DNA from: Octopus vulgaris
Lineage: Eukaryota
Reading direction: 5' to 3'
DNA length: 64,000 nt
Assembly: GCA_951406725.2 (NCBI GenBank)
Contig: OX597824.1
Location: 66,030,001 to 66,094,000, forward strand
Position 1 is the stretch's first letter; the number at the start of each line of letters is the position of its first letter. A model generated the notes under the pieces. The model did not search any database. It saw nothing but the letters and a program-made list of their open reading frames with translations, and was not told the DNA's origin. The position numbers and the translations under genes were made by a program. Positions 867-53,314 of the stretch are shown here, in pieces.

Positions 867-929
867 TCACCCAGCTTCTTGTTTACATTTATCAACAACA
901 GAAACTGGTGGCAATATTTTTTTGAAATC
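867..929 (-). CDS. SPATA17: SPATA17-like copy B exon 10 (DFKKILPPVSVVDKCKQEAG*)
   Basis: ctctctaactgtag acceptor, phase 0, TGA at 867-869; resembles the SPATA17 C-terminal DFQTVLP segment. Confidence 0.85.
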   Translation of the reverse strand, partial: DFKKILPPVSVVDKCKQEAG

Positions 930-3900
930 CTACAGTTAGAGAGAAATTGCTATTAACAGATTTGACTTGCTGAAATTTTAAAATTTACAGAGGGTGCGTG
1001 TATGCATGCAAGTGGGTGTATGAAGGTATGTGTTATGCATGATGTTTCTGAGTTTTGACCATTAGTGAAGCTCTTAATCATTCAGGATACTCACATTTGG
1101 GTAACATGACCTCTGGATATGATGATCATCATCATCACCATCATTTAACGTTTGTTTCCCATACTGGCATGAGTTGGACAGTTTAACAAGGGGCTGGCAA
1201 GCTGGAGAGCTGCACCAAGTTCCAAATTTCTGTTTTGGCATGATTCCTGTGGCTTGATGCCCTGCCTAATGCCAACCACTTTACAGAGTGTATTTTTACA
1301 TAATGCCAGCACAAGTGCTCTTTATGTGGTACCAGCACAGGTGCTTTTTACATCCATTCTTAGCAATATTTAATCAATTACATATAACAAACAAAACATG
1401 GATTTTATAAGCAGACACTTCCACCACATCGTTCCTATGAATATGTTTGCTTGCATATATGCACATCAGTGTATGTGTGTGTGTTATTGTCAGACCTCAA
1501 GGGACACTCTACTAAATCATCAATCAAACTACTGTCCACTGTATTGTTTTACAGGCATATGCTCTTGTCACTGACACTCATTTCTCATGACCTCTTATTG
1601 ACAAGGATAATGACAGCATCACTGATTCTAACGAGAATTTCAAGGAAGAGCAGATGTAAATAAGCATGCAGATACATGCATGAGCACACACACACACACA
1701 CACACACACACAATGGCCTTCTTTTCAGTGTCCATCTACCAAATCCACTTACAAGGCTTTGGTTAACCCAGGGCTATAGTAGAAGACAATTGTCCAATAT
1801 ATTACACAGTAGGACAAAACTTGAAACCACATCTTTGGGAATCATAAAGCCATCCATCCTAAAAGAAAAGACATTAGATAATATGATCCTAGATAAACTG
1901 TATCTGGAAACATAAAGGATGAATATCCATGGATGGAATGCTTTTTAGTCATAGATCTGCTTGATCAGAGTTCAACTGGGACTAAACCACAAGACAGGAG
2001 CAATAAACAGGTTTCTATTTTGTTGCTTGGCTTGACCAGCTACAAATAATTGCCAAATCTTAACACAAATCACACCTTACTGTCTTGTAGGTGAAGAAAC
2101 AAAAGAAAAATGTAGAAGTATGTTCTGCTAAAGAGACTATCTGGACGAAATGTTTCACAGCATTTCTTTGGTTTTATATTCTGAGTTTTGACTATAACTT
2201 CTGCTTGATCAAGGATAACATGGACTAAACAACCAACAACAGCAACAACTTGATGCTTCTTGACAGTAAATATTTCTCATGGCACTCCAACGGTTATGAC
2301 AAAGAGGGTTTCAGTTGATCCAATCAACGGAACAGCCTGCTCATGAAATTTACGTGCAAGTAGTTGAGCACTCCACAGACATGTGTACTTTTAACGTAGT
2401 TCTTGGGGAGATTCAGCATGACACAGAGTATGGCAAGGCTGGCCCTTCGAAATACAGGTACAACAAAAACAGGAAGAAAGAGTGAGAGAAAGTTGTGGTG
2501 AAAGGGTACAGCAGGGTTCGCCACCACCGGAGCCTTGTGGAACTTTAGGTGTTTTCACTCAATAAACACTCACAATCCAGGTCTGGGAATCTGGGAATCA
2601 AAACAAGTTTGCTGCCATTGTGCCTCCATAGTAAATATTTACACATAAGGGAACTAGATCATTCAGAATCAGCTTATCCCTGGACCATCATAGGTGAAAA
2701 AATTCAAAGGGTTATTGACCAGAAATTGGAAACTTCTGTACTCAGAAGCTGTAACTTTTGTTGTCTACTGCTGTCAACCCCATCACTCAACAACCTATTC
2801 ACCTATTTTATTGAACAACTTACCTTCTTTCCTGTGGACAAACAGGATTTATATTCCCTGAAGTTCAGTCTTCCATACACAGGGAGTTTATAGGGGGTAT
2901 CATTACAGATACGTGGTTCATACTTTGGTTCATCAACCTTGCTTGGTAAGCAACTGGAATGGTAAACAATTCTGGGTTAATTACACAAATACAGTAAACA
3001 AAGCTGGATTAATATAGCGTTACCGTATAAAGTGGAAATAGTTTATCTGCAAGGAATACTAGAGGTGACTAGCTGGAGTATACCGTACAGTTGAAGATGG
3101 TTAACGGGGTAGTTGGGTCACAGTTTACAATCAGAATGGGTTGTTAGATTTTAGTGTACAGGGAAATGGATTAGTATCTAGGTTTCAATGTGTAGTGGGT
3201 TAGTTGTTGAATACTTTATACAATGGGGGTGGGAAGGACTATACACGTAGTAGGTACTGCCAACTTTCTTACATGTCATAAAAATGAAGTCTACAAAACT
3301 CCGATTGGTCTCACATTTTACCCGTTTTATTTTACTGTTTCATTTTACCCAAAGTAGTAATGTTCTTTGGATTTACCTCACACAAATCTATCACCAGTAT
3401 CTTTCCTACATCAACAGTTGACTTCAGTCAATACTGGTAGAGTACAAAAAATCTGTATCAGTTTTAGAATGACACCCCTACGTAGCACAGTCAGTTATAC
3501 CAGCCTGAGTTACCTAGACCATTGAAAAACAAGTAAGTGTCTTGGGCATTGCAAAATGCTACTGACTACAAATGAGTCACCAATCTTTAAGCTATCCAGT
3601 ACCCATTGATTTGACTACCTGTAGATAACTCTCACAATTCATTTGGAGAAATTTGAGAAGTTTTGTGTAACAGAATTCCCTGAAAAGTATTGCACCTTGA
3701 ATTTAAATCCAACCAAAGTTATTAAAAAAATCCCTTTATAAAGACCTTATTGGACACAGTTACCTCATCAGTATATCAAAGATTATTGTAAGAAAGAAAA
3801 AGAAAAAATTATTTACAAATTTCCATAATGTTTCTGAGATAATTCTGTCTTAAACTTATTCCAAGCTTTAACCAGATGGTCAACATCTGTTTCAGTTTGT

Positions 3901-6900
3901 AGATTGGGATTTAAAGGCTTATAGCGCTTTCGCATCACTTGTTCGGGATTTAGGAATGGCCCCTGTTAACAAAGAAAGGCATGAAAATTAACAATAAATA
4001 GTAGATATTTCCAAGTTTTGTATTCAGTTAGAAACGTAATCTGTGTGTGTGTGTATTTGTGCATGTGTGTGTGCAATCATTGATTTTGGCTAAACATATT
4101 TGGAGTGATGGATGAAATGGTTGAGTGCCTAAAGTCTAGTACTTCTGTAACATGTATTAGATATCCAAATCTACTAAAAATGTTTCTTTGTGTTTGTAAC
4201 AGGATGAGAGGTCTATAACACTGGATGGGTGCAGCTTACATCTTTACATTAAAATATTAACCAAAGGAAAGAGTCAAGACTTCCGATTAATTTCAACAGC
4301 ATAAATATTTTATTTCTGAATTTGCAGTATATACATTCTTCTTTCAGGGCGAATCGGCAGCCCAGGAGCTCGTCGCAGTAGTCAAGTGGAGTGAGCCAAA
4401 TCCTGTCCGTTCAAGCATAGCATAGAAAATGCCACGAGGTAGCAGCTTGAGAGAGCTGCTAAAACACGACTGTCTTATTCGGCTGCCAGTGTTTGAGAGG
4501 TCAATACGAGGGAAAATTCCAGTTTCTGTGCAGGCGCATGAGGGAACTTCTGGCAGGCCGCCCGAAGGAATCCAACTCTGCGCATGCATGCTGAAGATTT
4601 CCAAGATGGCGTCACTACATGTTTTTAAACAGGAAATTTAATCCTACATTGCTTCTACAATTCTATATTCCTGAGATGAGAAACTTATATTATGTTTCTA
4701 TTAATATATTATGTTCCTGTTAGTTGGACTGGTGTCCTCATCTTGATTGTTACTCCCTTTACATTTTGGCTTTTCTACACTCCAGCCTTCTTCTTGTGTT
4801 GAATTTAGTTGTATCAGAATTCTGACACAACTGAGTTCAACAAAAGACACCTGAAGAAGGTTGGAGTGTACAAAAGCCAAAACGTAATGAAAGCAACAAT
4901 CAAGATGAGGACACCAGTCGGACTAATAGAAACAGTGTCTTTTGATTTGGTTTTACTTTTCAGGCCTTGGAAAGTCATATAGGAAGAAATCCCTTTCACT
5001 CAATTACCTATTAACTTTTATATTGTATATAACACCACTTTTGCATCATCAGAGATTGTGTCTTTGGGTTAGATTATATTCTTGACAATAATGCTTTCTT
5101 TTAAGTAGTTTGTAGAATTAAAAAAAGATTCAGTTGAATTATGATAAAAGCATTTATAAATGAGAGGTGCCATCCATTTCAAACAAGGCTAATACTAAGA
5201 TCAAAGAAATTAAAGTAAGCAGTATGTCTTTTGTTTTTGGTGTTGGTAAGGTGAGCTATTTCCAGCTTGTCAATTGACTGCATAGAGGCTCCTTCATTAG
5301 CTTATGGTGTGTGCACATGTGAGAGAGAGAGAGAGGGGGGTGGTGCTTGATTTTAAGTTGGGTAGCGTGAAAGATATAGGATGTGCCTTGCTTCATAGTG
5401 AAACATTGTAGCTATGAAAAGGAGGTTGGCATTTGATGCTCTTATTCTCAACAGCCACTCAAGTGTGAAATGATGTTTAGTTTACAGACAGTTAAACTGA
5501 AACAATTTGACAATGGCTCATAGAAGATTTCAGTGTGTAACCTTATTGTTTCCAGTGTGGAAAAATCAACTAATTTTATTTTCTAAACCGATTTAAACAG
5601 ATTGAGGTTTCATGAGGATATTGAACACTAAGTGTTCCAAGTGAACTCAAGATCTCTTGCAGAAGATATTCTGGAAAGGTTTCCTTCTACTTTTATAGTC
5701 CTCCCAAAAACTTGAGCTTTACTTGCAAGCTAACAAAAGTCTCATTAATTCAGTGATTTAAAGAATGATAGAATTAGTAACAGAAGGATAAGATAGTAGA
5801 TTAACAGAATGGACCTATAACTCTAATGGATCATTGGTACACCACTGAAGAGATCTGGTCAAAAGAAGAATATACAAGAATGATTTTTTTCATGCCTTCT
5901 TTAAGAACATCTACATTATGTCTTTTGCAGCATCAGTTTACTTGGAGGTGAACTGATGTTGCATAAGGCAAATGTTCATGGGCTTAGTGCCAATGACAGA
6001 ATATGAGCCATCAATCTTCCACTCACCAGTTCAACATGCTATCAACATAACCAACTTTAGATTAATTAGCTAATTTTTACTACTGTAGGCACAAGACCTG
6101 AAATTTCTGGAGAAGTAGCTAGTTGATTACATGAATCCCAGTGCTCAACTGGTACTTATTTTATTGACTCCAAAAGGATGAATGGTAAAGTTGACCTCAG
6201 CAGAATATGAACTTGGAATGTAAAGATAGATGAAATGCTACTAAGAATTTTGTCTGCATGCTAATGATTCAATCAACTTACTGCCTTATGATTAATTAAA
6301 AAGAATTTCTACCTGAGGCTTCTGAAGACCAGCTGATTTTTCCGAGACTAATTGTTCATATCCCTCATGGGTAATATCTGGTGGCTTTTTCCTAGGTTTT
6401 TTTCCAGTGAAGCACAAAGATTTCAGGAAATTCTCAGCTTCATGGTTCTGACTTACACAAAACAAATATTTTAGATATTTTCTATTAGGTAAGGAAACAG
6501 TGAAATGGAGTTTTTCATACACATAAATACAGACAAAATTTACATACATTTTTAAAGTTTTGGGTCGTCTGGGGCTCTTACTCTATTTGTTTGGATAGAT
6601 GATTTGATATCATATAGCTAAAAGTAGCATAACAAATAAGTTCACTCTCAAAACAATACAATGTTGACTGTAAACATGGAAACATGACAGCCCAGCAGAA
6701 TATATTGAAAATATATACTATCAAGTATATACAAACAAGTTATTTTTAATCAAATACCATTTAATCCTTTAGCATTCAGACTACACTGTCAAATGTAATG
6801 CTTGTTTGTTCACATTGTTCTGAATTAACCTCAAAGCTCTGAGATTTCAATGATGTGATTGTTTAATTTTAGAATGACATTGTAGGGTAGGTGTAAGAGG

Positions 6901-9900
6901 CTAGATCTGGTCAGTTTGAACATGACAGCAAGGTTTTCTGGAAATATGTGCACTCAAAGCAGAGACCTCACTCTCCAGTGGGCCCTCTTCGCAACCCTCA
7001 CACAAACCAGATCACTGACGACCCCAAGGAATGCGCAGAACTCATTGCCGAGTGCTATGCAAACATATTCACTGTTGAAAGTCAAAATGTACCATCTTCA
7101 CCATCACTAACAGCAAACTCCATAACAACTATGGAATTTACACCTGCAATGCTGCGACGTCACCTTCAAAATAAGCACAACTATGCCTCCCATGGTCTCG
7201 ATGGAGTTACATACCTGCTTCTCAAACGTGGCAGGCACTTCCTTTTACACCAGCTTTCTATTTTCTTCCAGTACTGTCTCAACAATGGTGCTACTCCGGA
7301 GCAGTGGAAAACTGCCAGTGTCATTCCTCTGTTCAAAAAGGGCGACCGCACATCACCTGTCAACTATCGCCCAGTCAGTCTCACTAGCTGTATTGCAAAA
7401 CTGATGGAATCGTGTGTCAGAGAAACACTCTGGAACTTCTGGAGCTCTCACAGTCTCATCCGACCCTCACAATATGGATTTGTCCCTAACTCCAGCTGCA
7501 GTGACCAGCTTGTCGAGTTCCTTGAGGACATTACTCAGATTACTGACAGTGGCTCATGGGTGGATGTTGTCTACCTTGACTTTGCTAAGGCTTTCAACTC
7601 TGTGCCACACAAAAGGCTTATGGTGAAACTCTCTGCAATGGGTGTGGGGGATGACCTTTTTAACTGGTTGAAATCCTTCATCCTCAGCCGAAAGGAGGTA
7701 GTCACAGTTCTAGGACAGCACTCTACACCATATGAGATGTCATCGGGTGTACCACAGGGATCTGTCCTTGGTCCCCTCTTGTTTGTGGCATACATTAACG
7801 ACATAGATGCCAATTTAAAGAATGCCACAGTATTGAAATATGCAGACGACATCAAGCTGTACCTTGAAATCAAGAGGACAGATCCTGATGTCTACAACTC
7901 TTTCCTGCAATCAGACCTAGACACAATGCAGCAATGGATCACAGACTGGCAACTGAAACTGGCTGTGGACAAGTGTACCACCATGCATTTTGGGAGAAAA
8001 AACCCTGCGTTCACATACTCCCTCCACAACACTGATATCAAGAAATCCTCTTGTGAGCGTGACCTAGGCATCACTGTCAGCAGTGATTTGCGTTGGTCAA
8101 AGCATATCTCTAAGATTGTCAGGAAGGCCGAGGGTGTCTTGGCATCACTCAGCAGGTCTTTTGTTAGCCGCTCTCCAGCCATCTATTTAAAACTGTATAC
8201 AGCTATGGTACGACCACACTTGGAATTCGCATCATCAGTTTGGAACCCCTATCTTGCACAGAACATTGACCTCCTGGAATCTGTCCAGAGACGTGCAACC
8301 AAACGCATACCCTCCATCAGACACCTACCATATTCTGAGCGCCTTGTTTCCCTGGGCATGGATTCACTGAAGCTCCGGCGTTTGGCGACGGACTTGGTAA
8401 ACACCCACAAAGTTATCAACCACCTCACCAACAACAACACTGAACACCTTTTTGATCTCCATGTGTCTAACACACGTGGACATGCCTACAAAGTCAGAAA
8501 ACAATACAGCTCCCATGACTTTCGGAAACATTTTTTCACGCTCAGAATTGCTGAAGCATGGAATAAACTGCCTGCGTCAGTTGTTGACTGCCATGACACT
8601 GCATCTTTTAAGGCCCTCATGCTTTCCGAAATCCGCCGAAACTACACCTGATTATATATACACTTTAGATGAGTTGTAGTGCACCTGAGCACTGTACACA
8701 ATTATTATTATTATTATTATTATTATTATAAAGCTGATAGGATATTTACGCCAAATATGGCTGGTTTAAATGCTAAGTTGTTGAACACCATCATCAACAT
8801 TTTTATGTCTACTTTTCCATGTGGCATGGGTTGGATGGGACTTTTTGGAGTAGTGTATTATGGAGAGATGACCGTTCTGATATCAACCTTCATAGCTACC
8901 TCTTACTACATGAATTAAAATTTTTGAAACAAAACTCCCTGTTAAAGACTAAGGAGTCATCCCCTGAAAACAGCACTCACTAATGGCAACTTTCTCACAG
9001 ACCTGATGAACCTATATTACTGAACTACCTCCACATATCAGCAATTTACTTACATTGGTACAATGCCATAAAATTGCAAGAGACAATGGATTATATCAGT
9101 TGTCTCTTCTCTTCCACATATATATTTGTGATCTGTTTTATTATCCCTTGAATGATAAATAGAAACATTAAAAATATCATAGGGGAAACTGAACTCTAAA
9201 TTTCCAACCATTCCACACGCTCTTAGAAAAGATACTCTGGAGTAGTTGACTCTTAATTATATTAACCCTTACAAGAACCTGAATTCAGTATTGAAAACTA
9301 ACAAAACTAATTCTGTGATTTACAATACACATTCACAGAAAGACAGAATTAGTTGAGCAGAATGATGAAAACTCTAACAGAATTAGAATTAATTCAAAAT
9401 ACAAAAAGTTAAAATCAAATATGCTCCACCACTTAACATGTTTTCCATGCTGTCAAGGGTTGGATGGTTTGACACGAGCAGGCAAGCTAGATGATTGTGT
9501 CATACTCCAATGTTTACTTTAGCATGGTTTCTGTGGCTCAGTGCCCTTCTTAATGCTAGCCAATTTGCAGAGTGTACAGGGTGCTTTTTTCTCATGGCAG
9601 CAGCATTAATGAAGTCACTCTGCAACTTGTAAGATAAAGAACCCCACAACTGAGTGATAGTATAACAGAGAGAATTTAATTGTGAATTTTATTATTGTAT
9701 AATCTCAGAATTTTGCAAATATTTTTGCAGTGCTAAACAAGCTTAGTTACCAAAATTGGGGGATAGTAATGGTCTATACTAGCAGAAATCAGTTAGTAAA
9801 TATACAATTGGGACAAGCATGTTTGATATGCAGTGAAAAAAAGTGGAAGTAAATATTTCAGGTGTGGCCTTTCAATGTTATGGGCTGCTCTGAGTTTGAA

Positions 9901-12900
9901 AGGGAATATTCCAAGATGTTTTACTACACAAAAGTTTATGAGATAGTGGTTAAATTTACAAAGTGTTCTCATCTGTTATTAACAGGTAACAATATGTGGA
10001 ATGAAATCTATTAACTGCCTTACCCGAATGGTGAATTATAAACACCAGGAATGACTGCTGTACTTATTAGATGATGTTTCTTATAAGCTTGAGTTTTCTG
10101 GACTTCTTTTTTATAATTCATGAGAATTTCTTTCTCAATATCACTCTTTTTCTTTACAAATTCAGTAATGTGTGTACTAAAATAAAATTAAAGAGACAAG
10201 ATTCCAGTAGTCAGATAGTCCTTCATGAACAACACACATCTAAAACCCTCAAGGTTACTACAAATCATTGATGTTTTTCAGTGATTTCGCATACAAAATA
10301 TAGCAAAACTGCATCACAAAAACTGAGCTCTCTTTTTCAAGCAGTGAAAATACTTGATGTGTTAACTTTTTACAATGGAGTATTGTTTCCATATCTGAAA
10401 CAGTGTTGTTGCTGCATATATAAACATTATAGACAGAGAAAAGGGAAAAACAATCCACCCAACTGAAATGTGCAGTAACACACAGAAATTCTGGTCCACA
10501 GCATATTGTCTTCTCACTGTCTTTCTATCACTGCCATAGTAGCCTCAGTTCTTTAGAGCTGGCTGGTCTCATACCACCTTCACCCAGGCCCAGGAATTAT
10601 TAAATTATTTTTGTGATGACTTATTCAGACAAGGGAGTGCAGTACATACAACCTTTTTTCAGGGCCTCTATGATTGGTAGAAGGAAGGGAGGAAAGGTAT
10701 TATTGTTAGGCCTGAACACTTGTAGCAGAGATGGACTTCACTGCAGTATTAAACTGGGCAACAAATGATATCTACTATCCAAGAACAGAAACAGTTTCCT
10801 TGATAGGTTTCCAAACAATTTTCTGCAACAAAATTTCTCTCATGTGCCATTGGTTGATCAAAAGCTATGATAATAGACACTTGACAAAGATGCCATCCAA
10901 TGAGATCAAACCTGAAACACTATATTTGTGAAGCAAACTTCTAGACTGCACAGAAATGCTCATTCCCATGGATATGCAATAAGAACAAATAGTAACCAGA
11001 ATAGAGGTAGCTGATAGTAGAAAGGCATAGAAATGTTCTAGCTTTATGATTGCATAATATTAATGGATAGAATTGTTGTTAAACACCAGGTCAGGTTTGA
11101 TCAAGCATGCAGACATACAACTAAGTAAATGCATTCAGGCTCCTTCATTGGATTGTGACAGAAGCTACAGGTAAGTCTATAAAACAGATCTAGATCACAA
11201 AAGACATATTAATAAAAATGATCAGAGAATCAGTCTACTTACAGATAGTAAGAATTCTTTTCAATAATCAACTTCAGTTGATCCTTACGCTTGTAGAAAT
11301 TTAGAATGTATTTCCGACTGTAATATCCTTTCCATACCTTCTGAATCTGTATGAGTAATATATATATATGCAAAGTTTAGGTTAGGTAACATAGGTTTGT
11401 GACATATTTCAGCTGCTAAAAGGCAAATTCACTGCAGTTACTGTAGAGGAAACTTTTCTTTTATAGTAAAAAGGTGTGAAAGCACCCTATCTGTTTAATG
11501 TCACCATCTATTAGAATTCCCAAACATCAATGTTTCTAGCTCATTGGCTTTTATCAATGGGAAGTACTTAAGAGAGGCAACTCTGAACAGATCTTATAAA
11601 ACAAGAGCTTCATGTAAAATACAGTCAACAACATTGACTGATTTGTGCTGGTAGATCACCAGATTGTGGAAATTACTGAAATATTCGCGCCAAACAGTAT
11701 TTAGGCAGAAGCAAAGTTTAGATTAGTTAGAAAATGTTTGTGACATATTTCAACTGTGAAAAGGCAAATTCACTGCAGTTAACATAGAGAAAATGTTTTT
11801 CTTATGGTAAAAGGTGTGGAAACACCCTATCTCTTCAGTGTCACCATCTATTAGGATTCCTGGACATTGATGTTTCTAGCTCAGATGCACTCACAGACAC
11901 ACATGCCCTAACATGACAAGCACCCACCCAATAAACCCTTTTCTACCCCCACCAATACAGGTACCTCTCCACACCCCATGCATACATGCCCCCAGAGAAT
12001 TTAACCAAAGTTTTAACTAAAACATAAACAAAAACACACAAACGAACACACAGATGCCTATGCAGCCTTTGGTACCCACCTTGGAAATGCTGCACATATA
12101 GTACCACTGCACACATTCTAGTTCTATAGGAAAACCAACTCTAAAACATACATTTTCCCATACACTCTTTTCCAGAAAACACTTGTTCCCTCACATCACA
12201 CCCAGAGATGATACTTTGGTGCCAAGGGACATAACTCTTAAATTAACCCTTGTTTGGTTCGTTTCATCATCTGTTACACAGCAACTACAAACCGGATGTG
12301 TCTGTTCACCTCCAACAATAGAGAGCAGTCTCCATATTTCATTCCATAACTGCTATCTCTGAAGAGTGCATAGTTGCATAATCAGGTTGTTACCTAATAC
12401 TCCATCGAACTTCACTCAAAACTGATTAGTAAGATTGGCCATAATAGATATATAATACTGTACACTTCAATTAATAAATACACACACACACGAGGATCAG
12501 CTGAAAAGTTCCTAGGTTGACTAAGACACTCTCATGGAATGTGAGGAAATGAGGTTTATTTTTCAACATAGTCCCAGCATAATTCCCCTCCACACATTTC
12601 TTCCATCAGTGTTGCAGTGCTTGGATTCCATTGGTGAAGATTTCATCTTGTTGTTTAGAAAGTCCTCTACAGCATATATGAGGTCATCATTACTATTATT
12701 CTGGTTCCCAGACAAGTGTTTTATCATGTTGGAGAACAGATGATAATCAGATGGGACCAAATCAGGAAGGGAGGTTAATCAATCAATTCAAAGCCACAGT
12801 CATGCACAGCAGCCATTGAAACGAAGATATGTGAAACAAGATCCCTTTAGTTAGTTTTGCTCAGCATTTAATCATGATAGCCGAAGAGGACTTCTGATGT

Positions 12901-15900
12901 GGTGAAAATGACCTGCTCACCCAAGCAAGCATAGTGAAATGAACCTTAAAAATTGTGGTATTGAGGGAGTATTATCTTATGCACACTGTCACCTTATTTA
13001 CTGTGCATTGCAACTGGAATGCAGAAAATTACAGATGAATGAAAGGTGAAATCATATACATAGCTGTTTGCGTGTGTGTGTGTGTGTGCATTTGTAAAAG
13101 TGGAAATATGTCAGTATATAGGATGGAATGTGAATGAAAAAAAACACCCTAAAGAATGTTCATTCAAAACACTATCAAATCTGCAACATTCTTTTTTTTT
13201 TTTTAATGACTATTTTCCGTGCTTGCACGGGTTGGATGGCTCCTTTCCAACACTGTTGTGCCACTTGTTCTTTTCCTTTGTCATTTCCTTTTGTTAGGTT
13301 CAGCAACCTGATATCAATTTTCACCACTTCTGCTGTTCATGCCATCTTTGATTTTCCTTTCCCACAGCAGCTCCCTTCCACTTTGATGTTTAGGTACTTC
13401 TTTACTCAACTATCATCAATTATATGAAGCATATGTTCATACCAACGCTGTCTTATACACTACTTCTGATTACTCTCCTATCCAGTTTTTGTTTGATATG
13501 TGCATCATCATTCATATACACTGACATTATCTGCTTTTGTTTGGAGGTAGATGATGCTTCAAGAATCTACTCTTTGTTATCAACAGAAGTAATACCACTC
13601 TGAACTTTTTTCACCTTGTTTTGATTGTGGATACTTTTCTTTCACTACACCTTCCTTCACTGTGTGTGTGTGTGTGTGCGTGTGTGTGTATGTGAGAGAG
13701 AGAGAGAGAGAGAGTTGAAGGAGGATGAGGATAGTCAATAAATTGGTGCATTAGACAAAAATACTTTGTGCTTATATTACTTCGGTGGACATAACCATTC
13801 AGTAAATAGAGATGGATAAAAAAAGTACCTCAGAAAGTATTGGGGCTGATAAACTCAACTTAGATAGTCCACTCTGAGGAACTGCTATCAGTAGAAAAAG
13901 GATAAAAAAATAAGAGGGAAAGTTTCAAAGAGTAGAAGAAACAAACCTTAGTAGCCATTTTTTCATAATGATTTATACATTTTTCATAATATCTCGTCTA
14001 CAAAAGATAAAAAGTAACAAGAAGATCAATAATGAAGAATTTAGAATCAAAATAAGGACTAAACATTCAGCTTGTGGAAGGCTGTATACTGAAATATTGA
14101 TGTCTAATTTTGGCACAAGGCCACTCGATTTATTTTGATTTATTTTATGTTTTAGTGGGGTGTATCATTGATTAAATCTATTCTGGAAGCATGAAAGGAA
14201 AAGTTGATCCCAGATGTAATTAAACTCAGAACTTAAAACACTAAATAATTATCACACAACATGTTGTCTGGCACCCAACCAATTCAGTCAATCACTTTGC
14301 TTTATACATTGAAGTGACACTATATTATTAAATAGTTCTACAGAGTTGATGCATGGGTTTGATGCTTCTACAAATTGTTAGAATAACTGATTTTTATATA
14401 ATGAGGGATTTGGTTAAATTAAGGAATATAGAAGTTTGACTATGATAAGTGATGCTGTATGCTTTGTCTAAGATAAGTAGTTAGATTAATTGAAGTAAGT
14501 TAATGATTAAGTTTTATTTAAAACTTTAGCATTCGGATTATTCTGTCAAATGCAATGTTTATTTATTCACATTATCTTGAATTAATCATGCATTATCTTG
14601 TGGCTTCAAGATTTCAGTGATGTGATGTTTATTTTTACTATAACATTGTAAAGTAGGTGTGAGATGTTGGATCAGGCCAGTTTGAACATAACAAAAGGAA
14701 GAATATTTTGGCTGGATATGGCTGGTTTAAATGATAAAGGGTCAAGGGAACCTAGATTGAAGACCAAAATCATCAGTGTGATATGTCTGGTCTGTTGGAA
14801 CTCAGCTTACTGATGACTGCTACAAAATTTGAACTAATTTCCTTAATTAATTGCATATTGTAGAATCCCCCGCATACACCACAAGCTATTTCAGCAGCTT
14901 GTGGTGTATATGGGAGATTTGAAGTAAGACACCTACCTTCTCTTTGTCCACACAGACCTCTCCGGTGGTAATGCACCCTTCCATGTGGCCCAACCTGAAT
15001 GCTAAAAATAGCAGCTGCTTTTCCCTCACCTTGTCGAAGCACTCACACGTCCAGCACTGTCGGCTACCCCGATTGAAAAAAAAGCCCAATCGTCCCCTGC
15101 CTGGGCATGTGTCATTCCTGCGCCCTTCCTCTTCCGGTCAGCTCCCAAGTTCCAGTCAGCACCCCCAGCTGCTGATGTCATCCCACAAGTACTATCAGTA
15201 ACTGTACAGTGACTGAAAGAACATAAGAGAAAGAATCACTTTTATCAGTTCACAGCATCTACTGCCTAGTGTTTGTGACCAAAGAGGAGATAACCACTCC
15301 AAAATGCTTGCATTTCACAATCCAGATAGGTGGCACCATGAACTAATTTAGGTGTATTTACACCATTTGTCTACAGCGAGAAATTTTCTCTATGACAAAA
15401 CACAGTGAATGGTTTGTTTATGAGTCCAAACATACCACAAGCATATTTGAACTGGTAATGACATTGCAATTAGTACAAATACTGGTGACAGGGTAGATAC
15501 TACCAACCAGTCTGGTTGTTTATCCAGCAGCTAAAGCATGTCAGCCCATCAAAGCAGTAACAGACAGTCAGTCAGTCAATCATCTACACTGAATGACAGA
15601 TGAGTTTCAACACTTACCCAAAAGTAATGAGCGAAGTAGACACGAGCTTTGTACCCTCGCCAGTTTCGCTGAATAACAATAGCAGCATCAGTGCGGAGTC
15701 TACCAAAAGAGAGAAATTATGGAGATTACAGAATTCGCAAATGGGAATTGTGGAAAACTATGTGTGTGTGTGTTTGTGAGATTTAATAGATACAAGATTT
15801 AAAATTAAGCTACTATAAGTTTCATGCTTACAAAAAGTACTATAGATGTGTGCCATGTATTATAGTATAGTGTGCCATGTACCATCAAGCAGTCTTTCAG

Positions 15901-18900
15901 ATTCAGGATACAACACAGTTGTTCTCTGAGAAAAAGCAAGACAAGATGAAAAATTACTTGATAGTATATGACATACTATACAAGGTCACCTGACAATAGT
16001 ACAATTTTAAGTATGAAAATGATAGAAGCTCAATTTTAAACACTGTGTATATTATGATATTTATCTCTCATCAGATAGAGCACATTTTTTGTTGATCCCA
16101 CCAATTGATGAAGCAATATACAATATGTGTGTGTGTGTGTGTGTGTGCATGTATGTATCTTACATTATTTGAAGATTTAATCTGGGGCTTAATGAAGAAT
16201 ATATGAAGCATGCATTACAACAGTATCTAGGATTACATTATCCATATGTTCTCTTTTTATGGGAGAAAGATGAGTAAGTATATTGAGATCAATCCATCAG
16301 GTCATCAATGAACAATTTGTACCACAAGCTACTCTCTTTTTCACTTTGTGTTACGTAGAGTCTTTTGTACTTAAATCCACAGAACAAACATACACACATT
16401 TGCATAACTAACCCTTTTGATACTATCCTGCCAGAAACCACTTCTGGATCTGTGATACAAACATTCTATTTTAAAGTGATCTGAATTAAAAGTTCCCATC
16501 AAAACTTCATGTTACTTTATGTTCCAAACACCAGTTTAATAATGACAAAGTTTCTTCATTATTTTCAAAATTAATTGAAACAAAGACAGTGGTCTTTAAA
16601 CAGAAATATAGTGACAAAAGGGTTACTTTACAGTTTATGAATGTTATAAACCTAAACTCGAATATCAAAGTTTAGAAGGTTTTAATCAACTAAAAATACA
16701 GCAATATACAATACAAACAAAGATTGCTAAATTGTAAGAAAAACCAAACTTCAACACAGTAACATTTTTATGCAGCGAGTTGCTACATTCTAGACTAACT
16801 AAAATCAACGCAAACAGAACAGAACTCCGTGCAGTTGCACTGCAGGCATATAACAGCAATTGAGACAATCAAAATCATGTAATCAAAACAAAAATCACAA
16901 CATTGAATTAATAAACTTAATTTTTGTAACTATTTATTCAATATGTTTAATTTTTCTTATGTTGTTTAGGTAGTTCTAGTTCACCCTAATCCTCCAGAAA
17001 TATGATCAAAGGTGTTCTTGTAACTGCCCTGATTTGTTTTTCATGCAACTGTATCTAGGATTACATTATCCATATGTTCTCTTTTTATGGTAGAAAGATG
17101 AGTAAGTATATTTAGGTTATGCAATTGGTTCGTATAGCTTTCTATGCTTTTTTCTTTCATTTTTTTTTTTACAGGTGTTTAGATGTTAGATTCCTATAGC
17201 TTACTAAGTCTAAAGGGTTTTTTATGGTTCAGCTCCCATTTTCATCATCATCATCATTAATCAACATCCAAATTCCATACTAGCATATGCAGGACAGTTT
17301 GACAGGATCCAAAGGGCTCAAGGACAGCATCGTACTCCAATGTCTGCTTTGGCAAATGGAAGAGATATAAATCTTCCTTTGGATAGGATTCTGGCCTACT
17401 ACAAATAACATTTCCAAATGATCATATGATGCCTATTGTGAAAAGCTATGAGAAATGATGTGAGCAAGTTCATGAGATGTTGAGAACTTTCTAGCTTATG
17501 TGCAGAACAAAAGGGACAGAAAACTGCAGTGATAATTGTTATAAGTAAGCAGCTTACAGCTTACAAAAAGAAAACAAAATAAAAAAGGAAAGTATGAAAA
17601 ATGTATAAAGAAAATAAATTGCTTTAACTTACGCAAACTTTGAATCTTCTATCCAAACTTTGAGTTTGTAAAGAGGCATGCTCAATGGCCTTTGAGCACG
17701 GCTAAAAATTAAAAAAAATTTAAAAATCAAAATATTAAGTTTGTTTTCAAATTCGATCCTCAGAATGATATTTTGAAACGTTATCTTTACATCATGCATC
17801 AAATTCATAAATGTTGTGCTTATATTAATTACATAAGTCCACAACAGTGATTAAATTCAAAACTTCTGAGAGCAGTTCTAACTGACTATTATAGTTTGTC
17901 AATGTTATCCAAGTAGTATACAATGAAACTGTGTTTAACAACAAATTGGTAGTCACCTTAAACAGTCCTGACCATGCAACATTAGCTTAATGATAAAAGA
18001 TTGGCTAGATAGATATAGTGTGCAAATATTGACCAAATACATTTAAATGTTAATAATACAATAAATATACGAGGGTAAGTAAAAAATTATATGCACTTTT
18101 CTTTCTATAATTTATTAAAACAAAAGCAGGGTTTGAACAATTACACCATTTTTCAATATAGTCTCCTTACTCTTTGATGCAATTCTTCCAGTGGCCCACC
18201 AGCTGGCTTATTTCAACAGCAAAGGTTTTCTGCTAGTCGTGCAGCTATTAATGCACCACTTCCTGCACTTTGTCCATAGCAATTCGACAACCTCTCTAAG
18301 GATGTTTGAGCAGTTCTAAAAGGTGATAGTCAGAAAGGGCAAGGTCTAGACTGTATGGAGGGTGTTCCAGCAACTCGAAACCCAATTTTTCAATAGTTTC
18401 AACAGTGCGTGGGGATCATATGTGTTCATTGTCATGTAACATTAACACTTGGTATGACAATAGACCTTGATGTTTGGTGCAAATTGCTGGTTTCAGTTTG
18501 TTGGCCAGCATTTCACTGCTGACAGGAGACCCCTTTCTCCATATAATCTTCCAGTATATGTCCCTTTTGTGCTCCCCAAAACGGTTCACATCACATTCTG
18601 CAGAAGGTTGAGGCTTGAATTTCTTTTTCACTGGTGATTTCTGGTGTTTCCACTCCATGCTCTGCCTTTTAGATTCTGGCTCAGACTGAATATTCATTCC
18701 CAAAAACACTTTGCCTTCATCACTATAGTGGTCGACTAAGCATTGACAGATCTCCACATGACTGTGCTTATGCAATTCGGTAAACTCTCTTGGCACCCAT
18801 CTTGCACAGACTTTACACAAACAAAGCTTGTTGTGGATTTTGTATGCAGGACCATGTCTAATTTGAAGGGGACATGCCACCTCATTGATGGTCATTCATC

Positions 18901-21900: not shown

Positions 21901-24604
21901 TCTGCCAGCTTGTCTCTCAACCAGTTTACGCTTTTTGTCATCAATAGTTTTGAGTTAAACTATATTAGCTATGCCTCAGTAGAGTAGCCTAGGGTGTGCA
22001 TATCAAGCAAGGTGGCCACTTTATATGTGCATATAATGTAATTAGGACAGTCTTAAGGCACGGGTATACTGTGTAGTCACCCAGGTGCTTCACAAATCTA
22101 GGGGCCCATTTCTGATCTATGTATGCTGTGGCTTGCTATCAATAAATAAATACTATAGGGCCCAGTGTACTGATTTTCCCAAGGGCCGATAACGATGTTA
22201 AGAACGGCCTTTATTGTAATCGAAGTATACCTATTTCTTTACTAACCACAAGGGGCTAAACACGGAGGGGACAAACAAGGACAGACAAACAGATTAAGTC
22301 GATTATATAGACCCAGTGGGAAACTGGTACTTACTTTATCGACCCCGAAAAGATGAAAAGCAAAGTCGACCTCGGCGGAATTTGAACTCAGAACGTAACG
22401 GCAGACGAAATACGGCTACGCATTTCGCCCGGCGTGCTAACGTTTCTGCCAGCTCTACGCCACTGACAGATCTACCAATGTTTATTTTACACCTTTGTTA
22501 GCTGATTATTTAAACTTGCAAATTACATCACGTGTATTTGTTTACATTTGAAGAAGATTGTCACTTTCCGTAAAAGTTTTTTGGCAATCTTTCATCTCTA
22601 GTAACCTTTCCGTCGATTTCCGTAAAACAAATATTTTTTTTACATATGGGCTTGCGGGAACTTTTGAAGTAATGAGAGCGAAAGAGACTAAGAGAAAGCG
22701 ATTGTATGACGAGGGAAGTTCTTTTGAAGTTACCGTGCATGGGAGCATTGATGGACATGTGTGTGTGCGTGCGTGTGTGTGTTTGATGGGGTGTAGGTGA
22801 AGTGCTTCTGTTAGTGTGTGTGAAGAAACAGAGTAATGTGTGAAAGAAAGAGATAACTGAAATTTTTTACTAGGTGTATGTGTATATGTATGTATATTAC
22901 TTCAAAAGTTCCCGCAAGCCCATATGTAAAAAAAAAAATTTTTTTACGGAAATCGACGGAAAGGTCTACTAGAGACGAAAGATCGCCAGTTTTTTTTATA
23001 TAAGTGGGTTAGGGTTAGGGTTACGGTTAGGGTTGGGGGTGAAGGTTTTCTTTTTTCTTCAGAAATGTAAATAAACCCACGTGGGTTTATAAGTGACAGC
23101 TATGTAACTAGTACCGAATGATCGCCAAATATATTCATTTTCTTGAAAGTTAAGACGAAATGACGTGGGCTCCGGTGAATTTTCCGAAATTCCCCCCCCC
23201 CCAAATTAGACCGTATCCTACTATGCCACATATTTTATGCACTTTAGAAATAATTCCTGATGGACAAGGGGCTTTCACAGACTTCATATTCTTAACTGCT
23301 GCAAAAAAAAAAACCAAAAAAAAAATGGCTGGTCCCTCACTTATGTTCACATTAGAACAGCTCTCACACATTTAATAGCCTTTCATATTTGCAAGCCGTT
23401 CATTTTCACTTTTAGATAGTGGGATGGGGTTGCGAGGGGTGTATACTCTTTTACTCTTTTACTTGTTTCAGTCATTTGACTGCGGCCATGCTGGAGCACC
23501 GCCTTTAGTCGAGCAACTCGACCCCGGGACTTATTCTTTTTGTAAGCCCAGTACTTATTCTATCGGTCTCTTTTTGCCGAACCGCTAAGTGACGGGGACG
23601 TAAACACACCAGCATCGGTTGTCAAGCAATGCTAGGGGAACAAACACAGACACACAAACATACACACATACATACATATATATATATACATATATACGAC
23701 AGGCTTCTTTCAGTTTCCGTCTACCAAATCCACTCACAAGGCATTGGTCGGCCCGGGGCTATAGCAGAAGACACTTGCACAAGATGCCACGCAGTGGGAC
23801 TGAACCCGGAACCATGTGGTTGGTTAGCAAGCTACTTACCACACAGCCACGAATCAATTTTGGAGTTTCCTCATAGAATATTTGAAATTAATTATTTTCT
23901 TTTTTCCATATTCTTATAGCCTGTTTAAAATTTTGGCAGAAGACCAGCAATTTTAAGGGGAGTGGGTTAATCGATAACATTGACTCCAGGACATAACTGG
24001 TATTTATTTTATCGATCCCGAAAGGGTTGAAAGGCATAGTCGACCTCGGCGGAATTTGAACTAAAAAGTGAAGAGGCGGAAGAAATGACACGAAGCATTT
24101 TGCCCGACGCGATAACGATTCTGTCAGCTCACTGCCTTTGTCTAATGATAATGACGACTGCTTCAAATTTTTGCACGGTCAGCAATTTTTAGGGGTAGGG
24201 ATTAGTCGATTAGATCGATCTCAGTACTACTCTCTCTCTATCCGCTAAGTCGAAGACCGAAATATGCCAATCTACGCTTGGTGATCCCAGCTTCTAGCGA
24301 CATTTTTGACCTGATCTGCTTAAGAAGTACACTTGTACTTTATTTTATTGGCTCCGAAAGGATGACAGGTAATGTTGACATCGGCGGTATTTCAACTTAG
24401 AATGAAGAGAGTCGGAACAAATACTGCAAAGTAGTTTTCCGATGCTCTAGCAATTGTACCAGCTCCCTGTTTTAATAATAAAAAGAACAACAATGGTAAT
24501 AACTATAAGAAGAAATATCTCGATGTAACTTACTTTCTCTTAACATAAAGCTGTTTGATAAGCTGGCACTCCACCCTGAAATTGAGATACTGTAAATGTG
24601 ACAT
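867..24604 (-). CDS. SPATA17: SPATA17-like IQ-motif protein, copy B (10 coding exons, ~335 aa)
   Basis: Exons 24534-24604, 17633-17701, 15618-15699, 13947-13997, 11243-11346, 10024-10176, 6313-6451, 3817-3962, 2824-2953, 867-929. All are GT-AG, phases are compatible, total 1008 nt with no internal stop. Motifs IQRNWRGYKAR, IQKVWKGYYSRK, HHLISTAVIPGVYNSPF and GPFLNPEQVMRKRYKPLNP match recalled SPATA17. Confidence 0.9.
2824..2953 (-). CDS. SPATA17: SPATA17-like copy B exon 9 (CLPSKVDEPKYEP...YGRLNFRE...GKK)
   Basis: ttccag/gtaagt sites; 130 nt, same length and phase as copy A exon 9. Confidence 0.88.
3817..3962 (-). CDS. SPATA17: SPATA17-like copy B exon 8 (GPFLNPEQVMRKRYKPLNPNLQTET...)
   Basis: ttaacag/gtaaat sites; GPF...RYKPL motif. 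Confidence 0.9.
4712..4934. repeat. ~220-nt imperfect palindrome of Penelope-like terminal sequence with decayed hammerhead cores
   Basis: Arms are reverse complements around TCAGAATTCTGA; CTGAAGA-stem-(G>A)AAAC at 4851-4883. Confidence 0.7.
6313..6451 (-). CDS. SPATA17: SPATA17-like copy B exon 7 (QNHEAENFLK...GLQKPQ)
   Basis: Ends QKPQ|gtag as in copy A. Acceptor is either AAG (exon start 6451) or an in-frame TAG (exon start 6481). Confidence 0.75.
6924..8729 (+). mobile_element. CR1-clade LINE, 5'-truncated, with an intact RT reading frame and (ATT)n tail
   Basis: Frame open from DSKVFWKYV through YRPVSLTS, YLDFAKAF, GVPQGSVLGP, YADD, ERDLG to TRGH; short 3' UTR and (ATT)n tail. Confidence 0.95.
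10024..10176 (-). CDS. SPATA17: SPATA17-like copy B exon 6 (THITEFVKKK...HHLISTAVIPGVYNSPF)
   Basis: attttag/gtaagg sites; conserved IPGxYNSPF motif. Confidence 0.92.
11243..11346 (-). CDS. SPATA17: SPATA17-like copy B exon 5 (IQ3: IQKVWKGYYSRKYILNFYKRK...)
   Basis: catacag/gtaagt sites; 104 nt, as in copy A. Confidence 0.92.
12489..12830 (-). mobile_element. Mariner remnant
   Basis: LVPSDYHLF motif; cgaggatcagctgaaaagttc TIR-like end. Confidence 0.7.
13947..13997 (-). CDS. SPATA17: SPATA17-like copy B exon 4 (TRYYEKCINHYEKMATK)
   Basis: ttttgtag/gtttgt sites; 51 nt, ends MATK as in copy A. Confidence 0.88.
15618..15699 (-). CDS. SPATA17: SPATA17-like copy B exon 3 (IQ2: LRTDAAIVIQRNWRGYKARVYFAHYFW)
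   Basis: ttttggtag/gtaagt sites; 82 nt, as in copy A; canonical IQ motif. Confidence 0.92.
17633..17701 (-). CDS. SPATA17: SPATA17-like copy B exon 2, read in a shifted frame (RAQRPLSMPLYKLKVWIEDSKF); IQ1 vestigial
   Basis: atttttag/gtaagt sites; 69 nt, phase 2-2, open. The other frame holds a decayed IQ (ASLQTQSLDRRFKVC). Confidence 0.7.
18068..19200 (-). mobile_element. Degenerate mariner transposon
   Basis: KVCARWVPR, PESKRQSMEWKH, LHDN and YSxDLAxSDYH motifs; TA-CGAGGGT terminus at 18068. Confidence 0.88.
19233..19460. mobile_element. TTAA-flanked piggyBac-type MITE
   Basis: TTAA|CCCTTTAG...CTAAAGGG|TTAA; other family copies at 36143-36369, ~14520-14745, ~32388-32615 and a split copy at 6761-8785. 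Confidence 0.8.
21413..21650 (+). mobile_element. tRNA-derived SINE, family 1 (Meta-domain-like)
   Basis: GAGTTCAAATTCC B-box; GCCTTTCATCCTTTCGGGGTCGATAAA core; flanking direct repeat aggtattagattcaaac. Confidence 0.85.
22228..22460 (-). mobile_element. SINE family 1, inverted relative to the 21413 copy
   Basis: Reverse complement of 21413-21650; further copies at ~23960-24140, 29198-29400, 35905-36090, 59662-59865. Confidence 0.85.
22582..22988. mobile_element. Foldback/MITE with ~90-bp inverted arms
   Basis: ...cctttccgtcgatttccgtaaaa...acatatgggcttgcgggaacttttgaagtaat is mirrored at 22897-22988. Confidence 0.75.
23440..23850 (-). mobile_element. tRNA-derived SINE, family 2 (CORE-like, with an internal microsatellite)
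   Basis: TGGCTGTGTGGT A-box, GGTTCAGTCCC B-box, accttgggcaagt-like core; copies at 30833-31215, 54945-55605, 59185-59570. Confidence 0.85.
24534..24604 (-). CDS. SPATA17: SPATA17-like copy B exon 1 (MSHLQYLNFRVECQLIKQLYVKR)
   Basis: aaaATG start, gtaagt donor; 71 nt, phase 2, same length as copy A exon 1; LxxQxY pattern shared. Confidence 0.82.
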
Positions 24605-27150: not shown

Positions 27151-27819
27151 TGAAACAAATGATAATTTTGGATTATAAAAGGATAGTCTATTATGTATAA
27201 GCTATCAACATTTTGTTGTGACTCACTATTCTATCAGAGAATCTTGCCTCTCACAATATAAAAAAAACATCTCATGGCGCCAGCAGACAAAATGGAAAAG
27301 GCATTGCTCCAGATGATAGTGAGGGAGATGTGCTGGAAAAGACTATAAAAGCCAAAGAAGATTGTCCACTAGATTTAACTTCTGTGGATTTGCATGTGAC
27401 AATGTAGGCCAATGTAGGATCTATAATTTAAGGGACGCTTGTAGGTGGTTTTGAGATAGCAAGGGGTCTGAGACAATTAGAGGTAGCAAACCCTTGATGG
27501 TATATGATACATTTCTACCTGCTCCACTGGACTTTGGATTTCATTGTAACCCAGGTATGAGGCCAGAAAGGTTATTAATACCTACCTAGCATGCCACCTT
27601 GAGTCGACAAAGAAAGAATGACAATGTCCTCTTCACGGGTTGATTCTGACAAGTGCCCTTCCTTCTCCTTATGCATATTATACTTATTTTTTAAAAATTC
27701 AAAATGGAAAATATGTAACTGTCGAGGCCAGTGTGTTTTTCTGAATATTCCAGTCAATTGGAGTTTTTATAATTTATGTATTTCTATTATATTGGAATCG
27801 AAATTGAATTCACTCAAAA

Positions 27820-35808: not shown

Positions 35809-35847
35809 TCAAGCATAGGAACTGTTTGATATGCATGACTTGAAGTC
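35809..35847 (-). CDS. SPATA17: SPATA17-like copy A exon 10 (DFKSCISNSSYA*)
   Basis: ttttatttttcag acceptor; starts DF like copy B; possible +1 frameshift near 35826. Confidence 0.78.
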   Translation of the reverse strand, partial: DFKSCISNSSYA

Positions 35848-50800: not shown

Positions 50801-53278
50801 AAACAAAATGTCTAGCACTCTGTAATTATAGCACTTTATGTTCTGAGTTCAAATCTTGCCATGGTCAACTTTGCCTTTTGTCCCTTGTGGGTTTGGATAA
50901 AATAAAAAAGCTGCTAATACTGGTGATTGATTTAATGCTCGTATAACGTATCCTAAGTGTGAATGAAATTATAGAACATCTTTCATAGACATTTTTAAGT
51001 AAGAACACATGCACAAACATACATAAACAAAAAATTTAACTGGAACCAGGCAGCAGTATCCAGAAACATGAGAGGAGGAGCAGTGAACATCATGGAAGCT
51101 CCCTCATGAGAAGACATAGATTCCTTCTGGAGGAAAATCTGGAATGAAGAGAAAGTGTTTAACTAAGATGCTCTCTGGCTGGAAGAAATCCAAAGTTATT
51201 GCTCCTACGTTACACCCAAGACACAACATTGATGATGAAACTCTTGCAACTGTGATCCAGAAACTCCAGGATGGAAAAGCACCTGGAAGAAACTTAATTG
51301 TTGAATATTAGTACAAGAAGCTAAAATTCTACTGACCATATTTTATCAACCAGTACCAGCAAGTTCTCATTGGAAACAGTAGCATACCACACTGGTTAGC
51401 TCTGGCAGAGACAAAATTGATCCCCAAATGCAGAGCCTCCCACATGGCAAAAACTACCCTAACCCTAATTGAATGCCAGAACTTAATGTATAGGATATAT
51501 ACAGCATGCTTAAACCTCTTCCTTCAGGGCCATAGTGAAACCAATAACATCATCACAGCAGAACAAGTAGCTGGGAAGAAAGGGAGTCTGGAGATGTGCC
51601 AAGCAATTGTGAATAAACAAAACTGTGATGTCAGAGGTGTCAGAGCATAGGAGGAACCTAGTTTCAATGTAGCTAGACAACAAGAAAGCCTTTGATTCTG
51701 TTCCCAACTCACAGATGCCAGAAGCCCTTCAACTTGCTAAAGTTCCAGTGGACTTAGTCAAAGCCATAACTGACCTGACTTCATCGTTGGCCACCATCTT
51801 GAAATTAAACACAAAGAGTGACTGTATTATTACGGATAGAAAACAGTATCACAAAGACATATTCCAAAGGGACAGCCTCTCTGTGATGTTGTTTGTACTT
51901 TCTGTAAACCTCTTGTCATTCATATTATGGAAGCCTGAAGGATATCTCACAGGTTCATAAAGAAACAGAAATACCAAAATTACACACTGTTTCTTTGTGG
52001 ATGACTTGAAACTTTATACAAAGAATATGCATGAGATGAAAAAGAGCCTTGATCTAAGTAAAACATTCTCAAAGGATGTACGGTTGGAGTTTGGTCAGGA
52101 TAAATGTTGTTATATAGTTATAAAAAGGGGGAAAACTATAAACCAGGCTATTAATACCTCCATCAATGATTTGACTGTTTCCCCTAAATCTGATGAGGAA
52201 TGTTACAGGTATCTGGGAGTGGATAGAAGCATATCTTACAATGGCACCAGTAACAAAACACATGTCACTAAAGAATATTACAGTCAAATAAAGAAAATTT
52301 GGACATCAGAACTCTCTGTATTCAATAAAACAGTGGCCCACAGTGTGTTTGCAGTGCCAGTACTCATACCAGCATTTGGGCTGCTTGATGAGATCTGAAC
52401 CATTGATGTGAAACCCCGAGAAATACTAATTGCATTTGCAGTTCAGGAACAAGAAATATAAACCAAGTACCTGATGCGCAAAAGGGTTAGAGAATCAGGA
52501 AAAGCAGTAAAATGTGACAACAGATGCAAACTTTGTGGAGTTAATGCCAAAGACATCACCCACATCATAAGCAGTTGTCCGAAAATGTCATCATGATATT
52601 ATCTACCAACAAGACATGATGTTGTAGCTAGGACACTCTGTAATGAAATCTGTTGGAAGGATAAACCTGAGGATAAAGAAATAAGAAGCCACAGCATGGT
52701 AGAAGCCATAGCCCACTCATAATAAAAGCACAACAGACCTAATATAATGATTTGGGATAGAGAAGAGAAACTGTGCATTATTGTGGAAATTAGCTGCCCA
52801 GCGGATGTTAACATAAAACTGAAGATCAATGACAAAGAGAATACCTACGCTGAATCACTGAGAAATCTGCAGTTATCCAGATTACAAGTTCAGGTTTATA
52901 CCTGTAATTATTGGAGATCTGGGATATGTAACACACTGCCTAAACATCAATCTTGAGAAATTAGGCTTCGCAAAACCAGAAAGGAGAAAGCTAATTGGAA
53001 GACCACAGATCCAATCCATCACTGGAACTGAAAAAATCTGTAAAGCTTTCCAAAAGTTTATCATTTCAATATATATGAGCATGTCTTGATATGCAAGTAT
53101 ATGCATGAGAATACATGTATAAAGCAAAGCATACAAATCTGCATGCATACATACAAACAAACAAAAATACCCTGTTGTTGATGTTGAAATTCCAATGAAG
53201 GAGTCTTGAATCTAGGTTAGAAACCGGCTCTTTCTCTATTGGTAAGAAAGTTTGAAATAAAACTGAACACTGACATAC

Positions 53279-53314
<36 letters not shown>

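Follow-up and report, generated by a model that had tools for sequence, protein, structure and literature searches.

The 64,000-nt stretch of Octopus vulgaris DNA that was analysed (referred to as the window) was found to contain two tandem paralogs of SPATA17, a gene of cilia and of the sperm tail in other animals. Both paralogs (i.e., copies A and B) were intact and located on the minus strand, with exons at the positions listed below.

24604-867, minus strand: SPATA17 copy B, ten exons with AG/GT sites
24534..24604, minus strand: copy B exon 1, 71 nt, ending in phase 2 and homologous to copy A exon 1
17633..17701, minus strand: copy B exon 2, 69 nt, phase 2/2, encoding residues 25-46, which form the new peptide
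15618..15699, minus strand: copy B exon 3, starting in phase 2 and carrying IQ2
867..13997, minus strand: copy B exons 4-10, with the frame open up to the stop
13997-13947, 11346-11243 (with IQ3) and 10176-10024, minus strand: copy B exons 4-6
6451-6313, 3962-3817, 2953-2824 and 929-867, minus strand: copy B exons 7-10
35809..54568, minus strand: SPATA17 copy A, ten exons
54568-54498, 50658-50569, 49720-49639, 47434-47384 and 45678-45575, minus strand: copy A exons 1-5
50569..50658, minus strand: copy A exon 2, 90 nt, with intact IQ1
41494-41339, 39917-39788, 37686-37538, 37002-36873 and 35847-35809, minus strand: copy A exons 6-10

Nine of the ten copy A exons were joined and found to be stop-free. 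Exons 1, 3, 4 and 5 were equal in length between the copies, which were 42-56% identical in these equal-length exons. Joining the ten exons of copy B gave a translation of 335 residues, every one of them as in protein record P0001 of O. sinensis, and the features of a pseudogene were not noted in this copy, given its ten exons with AG/GT sites, its open frame and the identity across species of 122 of 123 residues in exons 1-5. In genome searches that scored best candidates only, exon 2 gave a single match each for copies A and B, and these copies were also the sole places found with exon 8.

Membership of both copies in the SPATA17/FAP305 family was evident from homology over their whole length to named and structurally solved members. 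A total of 31 homologues were found, which were mostly SPATA17 where named, and a family profile from alignment A1 (16 rows, 4 of them copy B) matched mouse SPATA17 (PDB 9ijj) with an E value of 6.5e-113 and Chlamydomonas FAP305 (7n6g) with an E value of 3.8e-47. IQ2, IQ3 and a Q-G-P-F block were kept in both copies. In a tree built from exon 3 onward, copies A and B and protein P0005 formed one group (99.1/78), within which the branching order was unsupported (13/48), and P0005 may lie inside or outside the A/B split. A fold search performed with a low-confidence model returned no match at E 0.001.

According to earlier studies, the C1a arm of the flagellar central apparatus has FAP305 as its rachis (bioRxiv 10.1101/2022.01.23.477438), mouse SPATA17 makes C1a stalks with three calmodulins bound (PMC12297659), and MOT17/FAP305 is listed in a review as SPATA17, with IQ motifs (PMC7999657). 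By homology to these proteins, copy B would be a C1a stalk (rachis) protein, with a localisation that is predicted by analogy. Unlike mouse SPATA17 and FAP305, the octopus proteins are encoded by two tandem copies with reciprocal losses, and the copy B stalk, with two IQ motifs, is predicted to be seven residues shorter and to offer two calmodulin sites instead of three. Searches of a library with few subscription journals found no published work linking SPATA17 with octopus and none on cephalopods together with a frameshift and an IQ motif.

Several other features were noted in the introns and elsewhere in the genome. Intron 6 of copy B held a 584-codon open frame (window 6897-8651, plus strand), presumably a LINE reverse transcriptase, and a 689-nt piece in intron 5 of copy A (window 42938-43626, plus strand) was 99.6% identical to the 3' part of this frame; the LINE-like pieces shared by the introns of A and B represent either recent insertions or conversion between the paralogs. 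Decayed transposase-like frames, which were taken to be mariner-like, were present in introns 4 and 1 of copy B (window 12563-12778 and 18416-18895, minus strand). The canonical calmodulin of the genome was split over exons, and single-exon EF-hand open frames belonged to a different family. Two adjoining intronless frames with four EF hands each (L020 1243-1752 and L021 1057-1746) were assumed to be calcineurin B retrocopies. On the minus strand of L010, a canonical-looking calmodulin gene was noted with a short last intron that was in frame and stop-free, so that retention of this intron would lengthen the last EF hand.

The first-pass annotation had proposed that paired frameshifts replaced the first IQ motif (IQ1) in exon 2 of copy B with a new peptide, and its description of the exon was borne out by the gene structure. 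Thus, the exon was bounded by strong splice sites (an AG acceptor after a T-rich tract and a GTAAGT donor), exon 1 ended in phase 2, exon 2 was in phase 2/2 and exon 3 started in phase 2, and the two translations that had been quoted, one of the translated frame and one of the IQ-like neighbouring frame, were both correct. The exon was symmetric as described, dropping it leaving the copy B frame open. The losses of 10 and 11 nt relative to copy A were also confirmed, as copy B had 36 nt before the first codon of the motif and 33 nt from there on, compared with 46 and 44 in copy A. Pfam IQ stretches numbered three each in copy A, P0005 and Lottia and two in copy B, in agreement with the contrast that had been drawn between the paralogs, and the first of these stretches in P0001 began at residue 50. 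No match to either frame of copy B exon 2 alone was obtained with the IQ profile (PF00612) or with other families.

In a search of 15700-24533, the interval in which another intact IQ1 exon would have counted against the first-pass annotation, the best-scoring window was exon 2 itself. A GC-rich window at 25151 scored higher and was located upstream of exon 1 in a repeat-looking stretch. Rescue of the IQ frame by other splice sites was rejected. Thus, among 25 AG and 38 GT or GC candidates within 200 nt of exon 2, ten AG/GT or AG/GC pairs enclosed the motif and could be joined to exons 1 and 3 in an open frame; every one of the ten used the new frame, and no such pair gave the IQ frame.

If the neighbouring register is the ancestral one, exon 2 of copy B and its end would be divided as follows.

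17684..17695, minus strand: putative first-frameshift zone, with about 7 nt lost at some point within the zone
17633..17683, minus strand: putative fossil of IQ1, read in the unused (-1) register; it covers family columns -7 to +10 and lacks a codon between columns -6 and -4
17622..17633, minus strand: exon end and donor, where a putative second loss removed 11 nt from the exon, by deletion or by a move of the donor

The two registers were one base apart and could therefore be tested on the same bases. For this comparison, a family profile was derived from 102 distinct IQ1 exons other than those of copy B, the rows of which were excluded (106 of 187 proteins passed the selection pattern, which fixes Gln at column +1, where an independent alignment gave 0.96). 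The unused frame scored +4.1 bits and the translated frame -11.1 bits, and when the amino-acid profile was applied to 5,000 shuffles, p values for the unused frame were 0.004 for one frame and 0.012 for any of three. With the codon-level model described next, the best 14-codon window of the unused frame was matched by only 2 of 20,000 dinucleotide shuffles, and the match of this frame was thus beyond chance. In this codon-mutation model with the ancestral codon drawn from the profile and each base free to mutate, 14 codons scored +14.0 to +15.9 bits in the unused register as opposed to -6.9 to +0.4 bits in the translated register over five divergence settings, and the minimal numbers of base changes over these codons were 6 and 15, respectively. 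The canonical IQSWYRGFKVR, which the annotation had restored by a few reversions, was upheld in its IQ match, whereas the F-K-V part fitted the wider family rather than copy A or P0005, both of which have A-R-S there. The unused frame was still ahead when the F-K-V codons were dropped (+9.5 vs -2.9 bits) and, by 8-14 bits, when the ancestor was limited to residues of copy A and P0005.

Alignment of the whole exon improved by 16 bits once frameshifts were allowed, and none of 300 shuffles gained as much. Four penalty sets gave one common best path, in which the first codons kept the ancestral frame, a loss of about 7 nt came next, E-H followed, one codon was lost, and A-S-L-Q-T-Q-S-L-D-R-R-F-K-V-C was paired with family columns -4 to +10 before the loss of 11 nt at the exon end. 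The 10 nt that had been described as missing before the motif was best split into a frameshifting loss of about 7 nt and an in-frame loss of 3 nt. In a frameshift-aware model summed over all paths, the probability of no frameshift ranged from 8.9e-6 to 4.7e-3 over the four penalty sets. The posterior of the unused register was 0.89-1.00 for columns -4 to +8 and that of the translated register was 0.95-0.98 at columns -15 and -14, with the changeover to the unused register between columns -13 and -8. In these codon-model, alignment and posterior tests, the paired-frameshift reading held up against in-frame decay with codon deletions. The exon thus had the marks of a compensatory frameshift pair (pCFM), i.e., two losses that are not divisible by three and a sum that is, an intervening segment in a new register (-7, -3 in frame and -11 on the best path) and an open frame restored downstream, with 335 codons to the stop.

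Results that did not favour a shift were also obtained. Direct base comparison with copy A was tied (17/42 shifted vs 18/42 in frame), BLOSUM scores against P0005 alone placed the in-frame register ahead (17 vs 8), a preference driven by Trp, and plain nucleotide alignment to copy A, which was the sole nucleotide partner and near saturation, gave three different alignments with three gap settings. In a MAFFT protein alignment, the translated K-L-K-V-W was paired with K-I-Q-S-W by means of whole-codon gaps, the missing 21 nt being equal to seven codons. These are the results on which a history with no frameshift would draw, the translated frame being ancestral, IQ1 having decayed by substitution from K-I-Q-S-W to K-L-K-V-W with the loss of three plus four whole codons, and the IQ likeness of the other register being due to chance. 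In its favour are the Trp column retained by MAFFT, the 18 of 42 bases matched to copy A, the BLOSUM scores and the example of copy A, in which a conserved motif of this gene pair decayed in frame. The same history calls for 15 rather than 6 base changes over 14 codons, keeps just 2 of 11 strongly conserved exon 2 columns, has a posterior of at most 0.005 under the family model and leaves unexplained a window in the other register that 2 of 20,000 shuffles matched; it was considered very unlikely. Less credible still was a shorter shift, with the ancestral frame read through the Trp codon and about seven codons recoded after it. Such a shift, which needs no new substitutions for Trp, scored +8.6 to +10.3 bits, which is far more than the no-shift reading but about 5 bits less than the full shift over the same codons, and at columns -4 to +3 the translated register had a posterior of at most 0.01.

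Among changes assigned to the period after the shift, those that are silent in the new frame were no more frequent than expected (p 0.46). In homologue searches, copy B exon 2 was not found outside three Octopus species, and none of the outgroups found had an exon of intermediate form; a search for shorter copy B fragments found none, and a 50%-cluster search added just a 68-residue exon 6 fragment. Because of the tied base comparison, the BLOSUM result, the unstable alignments and the unsupported branching order in the tree, the frameshift itself was regarded as highly probable rather than certain. The whole explanation, namely that splicing puts exon 2 of copy B into a frame without IQ1 and that the old IQ1 persists one base off as a fossil of cancelling losses after tandem duplication, was regarded as likely at a lower level of confidence.

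Within the paired-frameshift explanation, the 11-nt loss at the exon end would have been either a deletion or a move of the donor. A new splice donor 11 nt upstream, with the old exon end now part of the intron, would account for a loss exactly at the exon end, and the eleventh base past the donor closes an AG as at the end of copy A exon 2. Nevertheless, the 11 bases scored below background against family columns 11-13 (-0.8, -0.9 and -2.3 bits), leaving no remnant of the old end, and were not followed by GT, and this form of the second event was considered rather doubtful.

Use of the new peptide was examined in protein records and sequence runs, and the following additional features were noted in copy B.

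27582..27676, minus strand: alternative first exon of copy B, present in O. vulgaris model P0004 and ending in phase 2
17677..17679, minus strand: possible downstream start ATG (Met32) in the translated frame, with a purine at -3; putative

The peptide was unchanged in four records (P0001-P0004) from O. sinensis, O. bimaculoides (two isoforms) and O. vulgaris. Its occurrence in three Octopus species, a mark of a pCFM as opposed to an assembly error, was thus observed in these records. Three different first exons were used in them, exon 2 being included in all four and skipped in none; O. bimaculoides isoform P0003 had a first exon of its own, which had no match in the window or in four flanking stretches. 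Model P0004 (280 aa) ended by read-through of the exon 8 donor into intron 8 (window 3816-3820, minus strand), and copy A model P0183 (278 aa) was likewise short. Identity between O. sinensis and O. bimaculoides copy B was 22/22 in exon 2, 122/123 in exons 1-5 and 172/207 (83%) in exons 6-10. The chance of 22/22 was 0.017 when the rate of exons 6-10 was applied, 0.007 with the rate of the four exons that vary most and 0.065 with that of the whole protein. This identity points to constraint at the protein or RNA level, and the new peptide may be under purifying selection as protein.

Inclusion of exon 2 in the transcript is suggested by database gene models, splice signals and conservation. Exon 1-2 and exon 2-3 junctions were absent from the joints listed for runs X2, X3, X6 and X11 (4 of 24 runs), the listing being swamped by repeats. 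One X2 contig bridged the 3' end of copy B exon 2 without a gap. This contig (17249-17700, taken by guess to be RNA and from one study) ran from exon 2 into intron 2 and ended one base short of the acceptor; it is unspliced RNA or DNA. Cover by X2 in intron 1 of copy B was slight. The open frame left by skipping and the lack of either junction among the listed joints would also suit a mostly skipped vestige, with exons 1 and 3 joined directly in the working protein and the new peptide being incidental. Presence of the exon in every copy B record, the 22/22 identity of the peptide across species, the consensus donor and the T-rich acceptor argue against this possibility, which was judged improbable.

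In models with a mean pLDDT of about 60 (i.e., low confidence), copy A had a predicted helix at residues 13-66 that spanned exon 2, and in copy B the helix ran from residue 33 to 159 after a break at 27-32. The new peptide may thus continue the long N-terminal helix after a proline-bounded break, although the input alignment of the copy B model paired this peptide with IQ1 columns and may bias the prediction toward helix.

In the sequence of events proposed for copy B, about 7 nt would have been lost after the first two to six codons, with a further 3 nt lost in frame and 11 nt at the end, for a total of 21 nt, and about 17-19 codons would have been recoded between the two frame-breaking losses. 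An intermediate with a single shift would stop early, at codon 4 or 35 when counted from exon 3. This intermediate is proposed to have been tolerated for two reasons, namely that copy A covered the function and that the frame is kept when the symmetric exon is skipped; copy A alongside, exon 2 skipping or the in-frame ATG at 17679 could each have softened the single-shift state. By this route, calmodulin binding at IQ1 was presumably lost from copy B.

The inferred changes that separate the fossil from the family consensus were also read in the new frame. One changed a stop to Tyr35, two were silent and two changed Phe to Leu37 and Gly to Trp40, and Leu37 and Trp40 fell exactly at the Ile and Trp columns of IQ1. 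The placement of these residues at the Ile and Trp columns would explain why aligners miss the shift. In a test that used an inferred ancestor and four changes, with Asp at column +4 uncounted, the gain was 11.1 bits compared with 0.7 +/- 3.3 in 50,000 simulations (p 0.006). Because this test was post hoc, having been chosen after Trp was seen, and depended on an inferred ancestor and four changes, the result was taken as a lead only. It is conceivable, but unlikely, that selection rebuilt the IQ1 docking face in the new frame, that the recoded helix seats calmodulin or another partner differently, and that the damaged paralogs make two different C1a stalks or one mixed stalk.

A loss of the opposite kind was noted in copy A.

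41339..41494, minus strand: copy A exon 6, with the H-x-L-x-S-T...G-x-Y motif decayed in frame

Six columns of this motif reached a conservation of 70% or more among 69 family proteins, its His and Thr being invariant in all 69; of these columns, copy A kept one and copy B all six. By the same measure, copy A kept ten of eleven exon 2 columns and copy B two, and P0005 kept both motifs. In addition, copy A ended early in exon 10 and copy B lacked the E-W...D block of exon 8. The reciprocal motif losses fit a division of the ancestral job, which copies A and B have likely split, with another near-invariant motif lost from copy A.

The mechanism is known in kind as a compensatory frameshift pair and is unusual in striking a conserved ligand site. 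In a screen of vertebrates and insects by Biba et al. (PMC8935012), six high-confidence genes with pCFMs were reported. These pairs were mainly in poorly conserved regions, with recoded stretches of 7-99 nt in the six genes, and the screen covered indels of 1-2 nt that passed a filter for recovery by ordinary aligners. In some cases substitutions had brought the peptide back toward the ancestral one, with no general tendency to do so. As in these pCFMs, the octopus exon has two frame-breaking losses that sum to a whole frame, an internal recoded stretch (here about 50-55 nt), a position near a gene end and occurrence in several species, and the changes to Leu37 and Trp40 resemble compensation toward the ancestral peptide as seen in some of them. 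Unlike the pCFMs described there, the octopus losses are about 7 and 11 nt, with one of the two located at a splice site and nearly all of the exon recoded. In addition, they occur in a paralog of a mollusc and affect a ligand-binding motif that is strongly conserved. A further parallel is the euAP3 motif of the APETALA3 lineage (Kramer et al. 2006, PMC1513400), in which one of the paralogs left by a duplication had a conserved motif replaced through a frameshift. Both cases involved few further base changes and conservation of the new motif thereafter. The euAP3 change was a deletion of 1 nt with no compensating event, at the C-terminus of a transcription factor in plants, whereas the octopus exon is internal with 289 codons downstream, so that a second event was needed.

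Well-supported compensatory frameshift pairs are rare, and in this case a conserved calmodulin site appears to have been erased from a structurally mapped flagellar protein with a readable fossil left behind. The shift is hidden from protein aligners, which show an ordinary decayed motif, and events of this kind in paralogs may therefore be undercounted in protein alignments. Exon 2 of copy B would also serve as a worked case of how duplication together with a skippable symmetric exon can bring a gene through a frameshift, and with it one can ask directly if ancestral chemistry is restored in a new frame by later substitutions. For the octopus flagellum, the two paralogs would represent a natural variant of the C1a stalk with three versus two calmodulins, as predicted from sequence.
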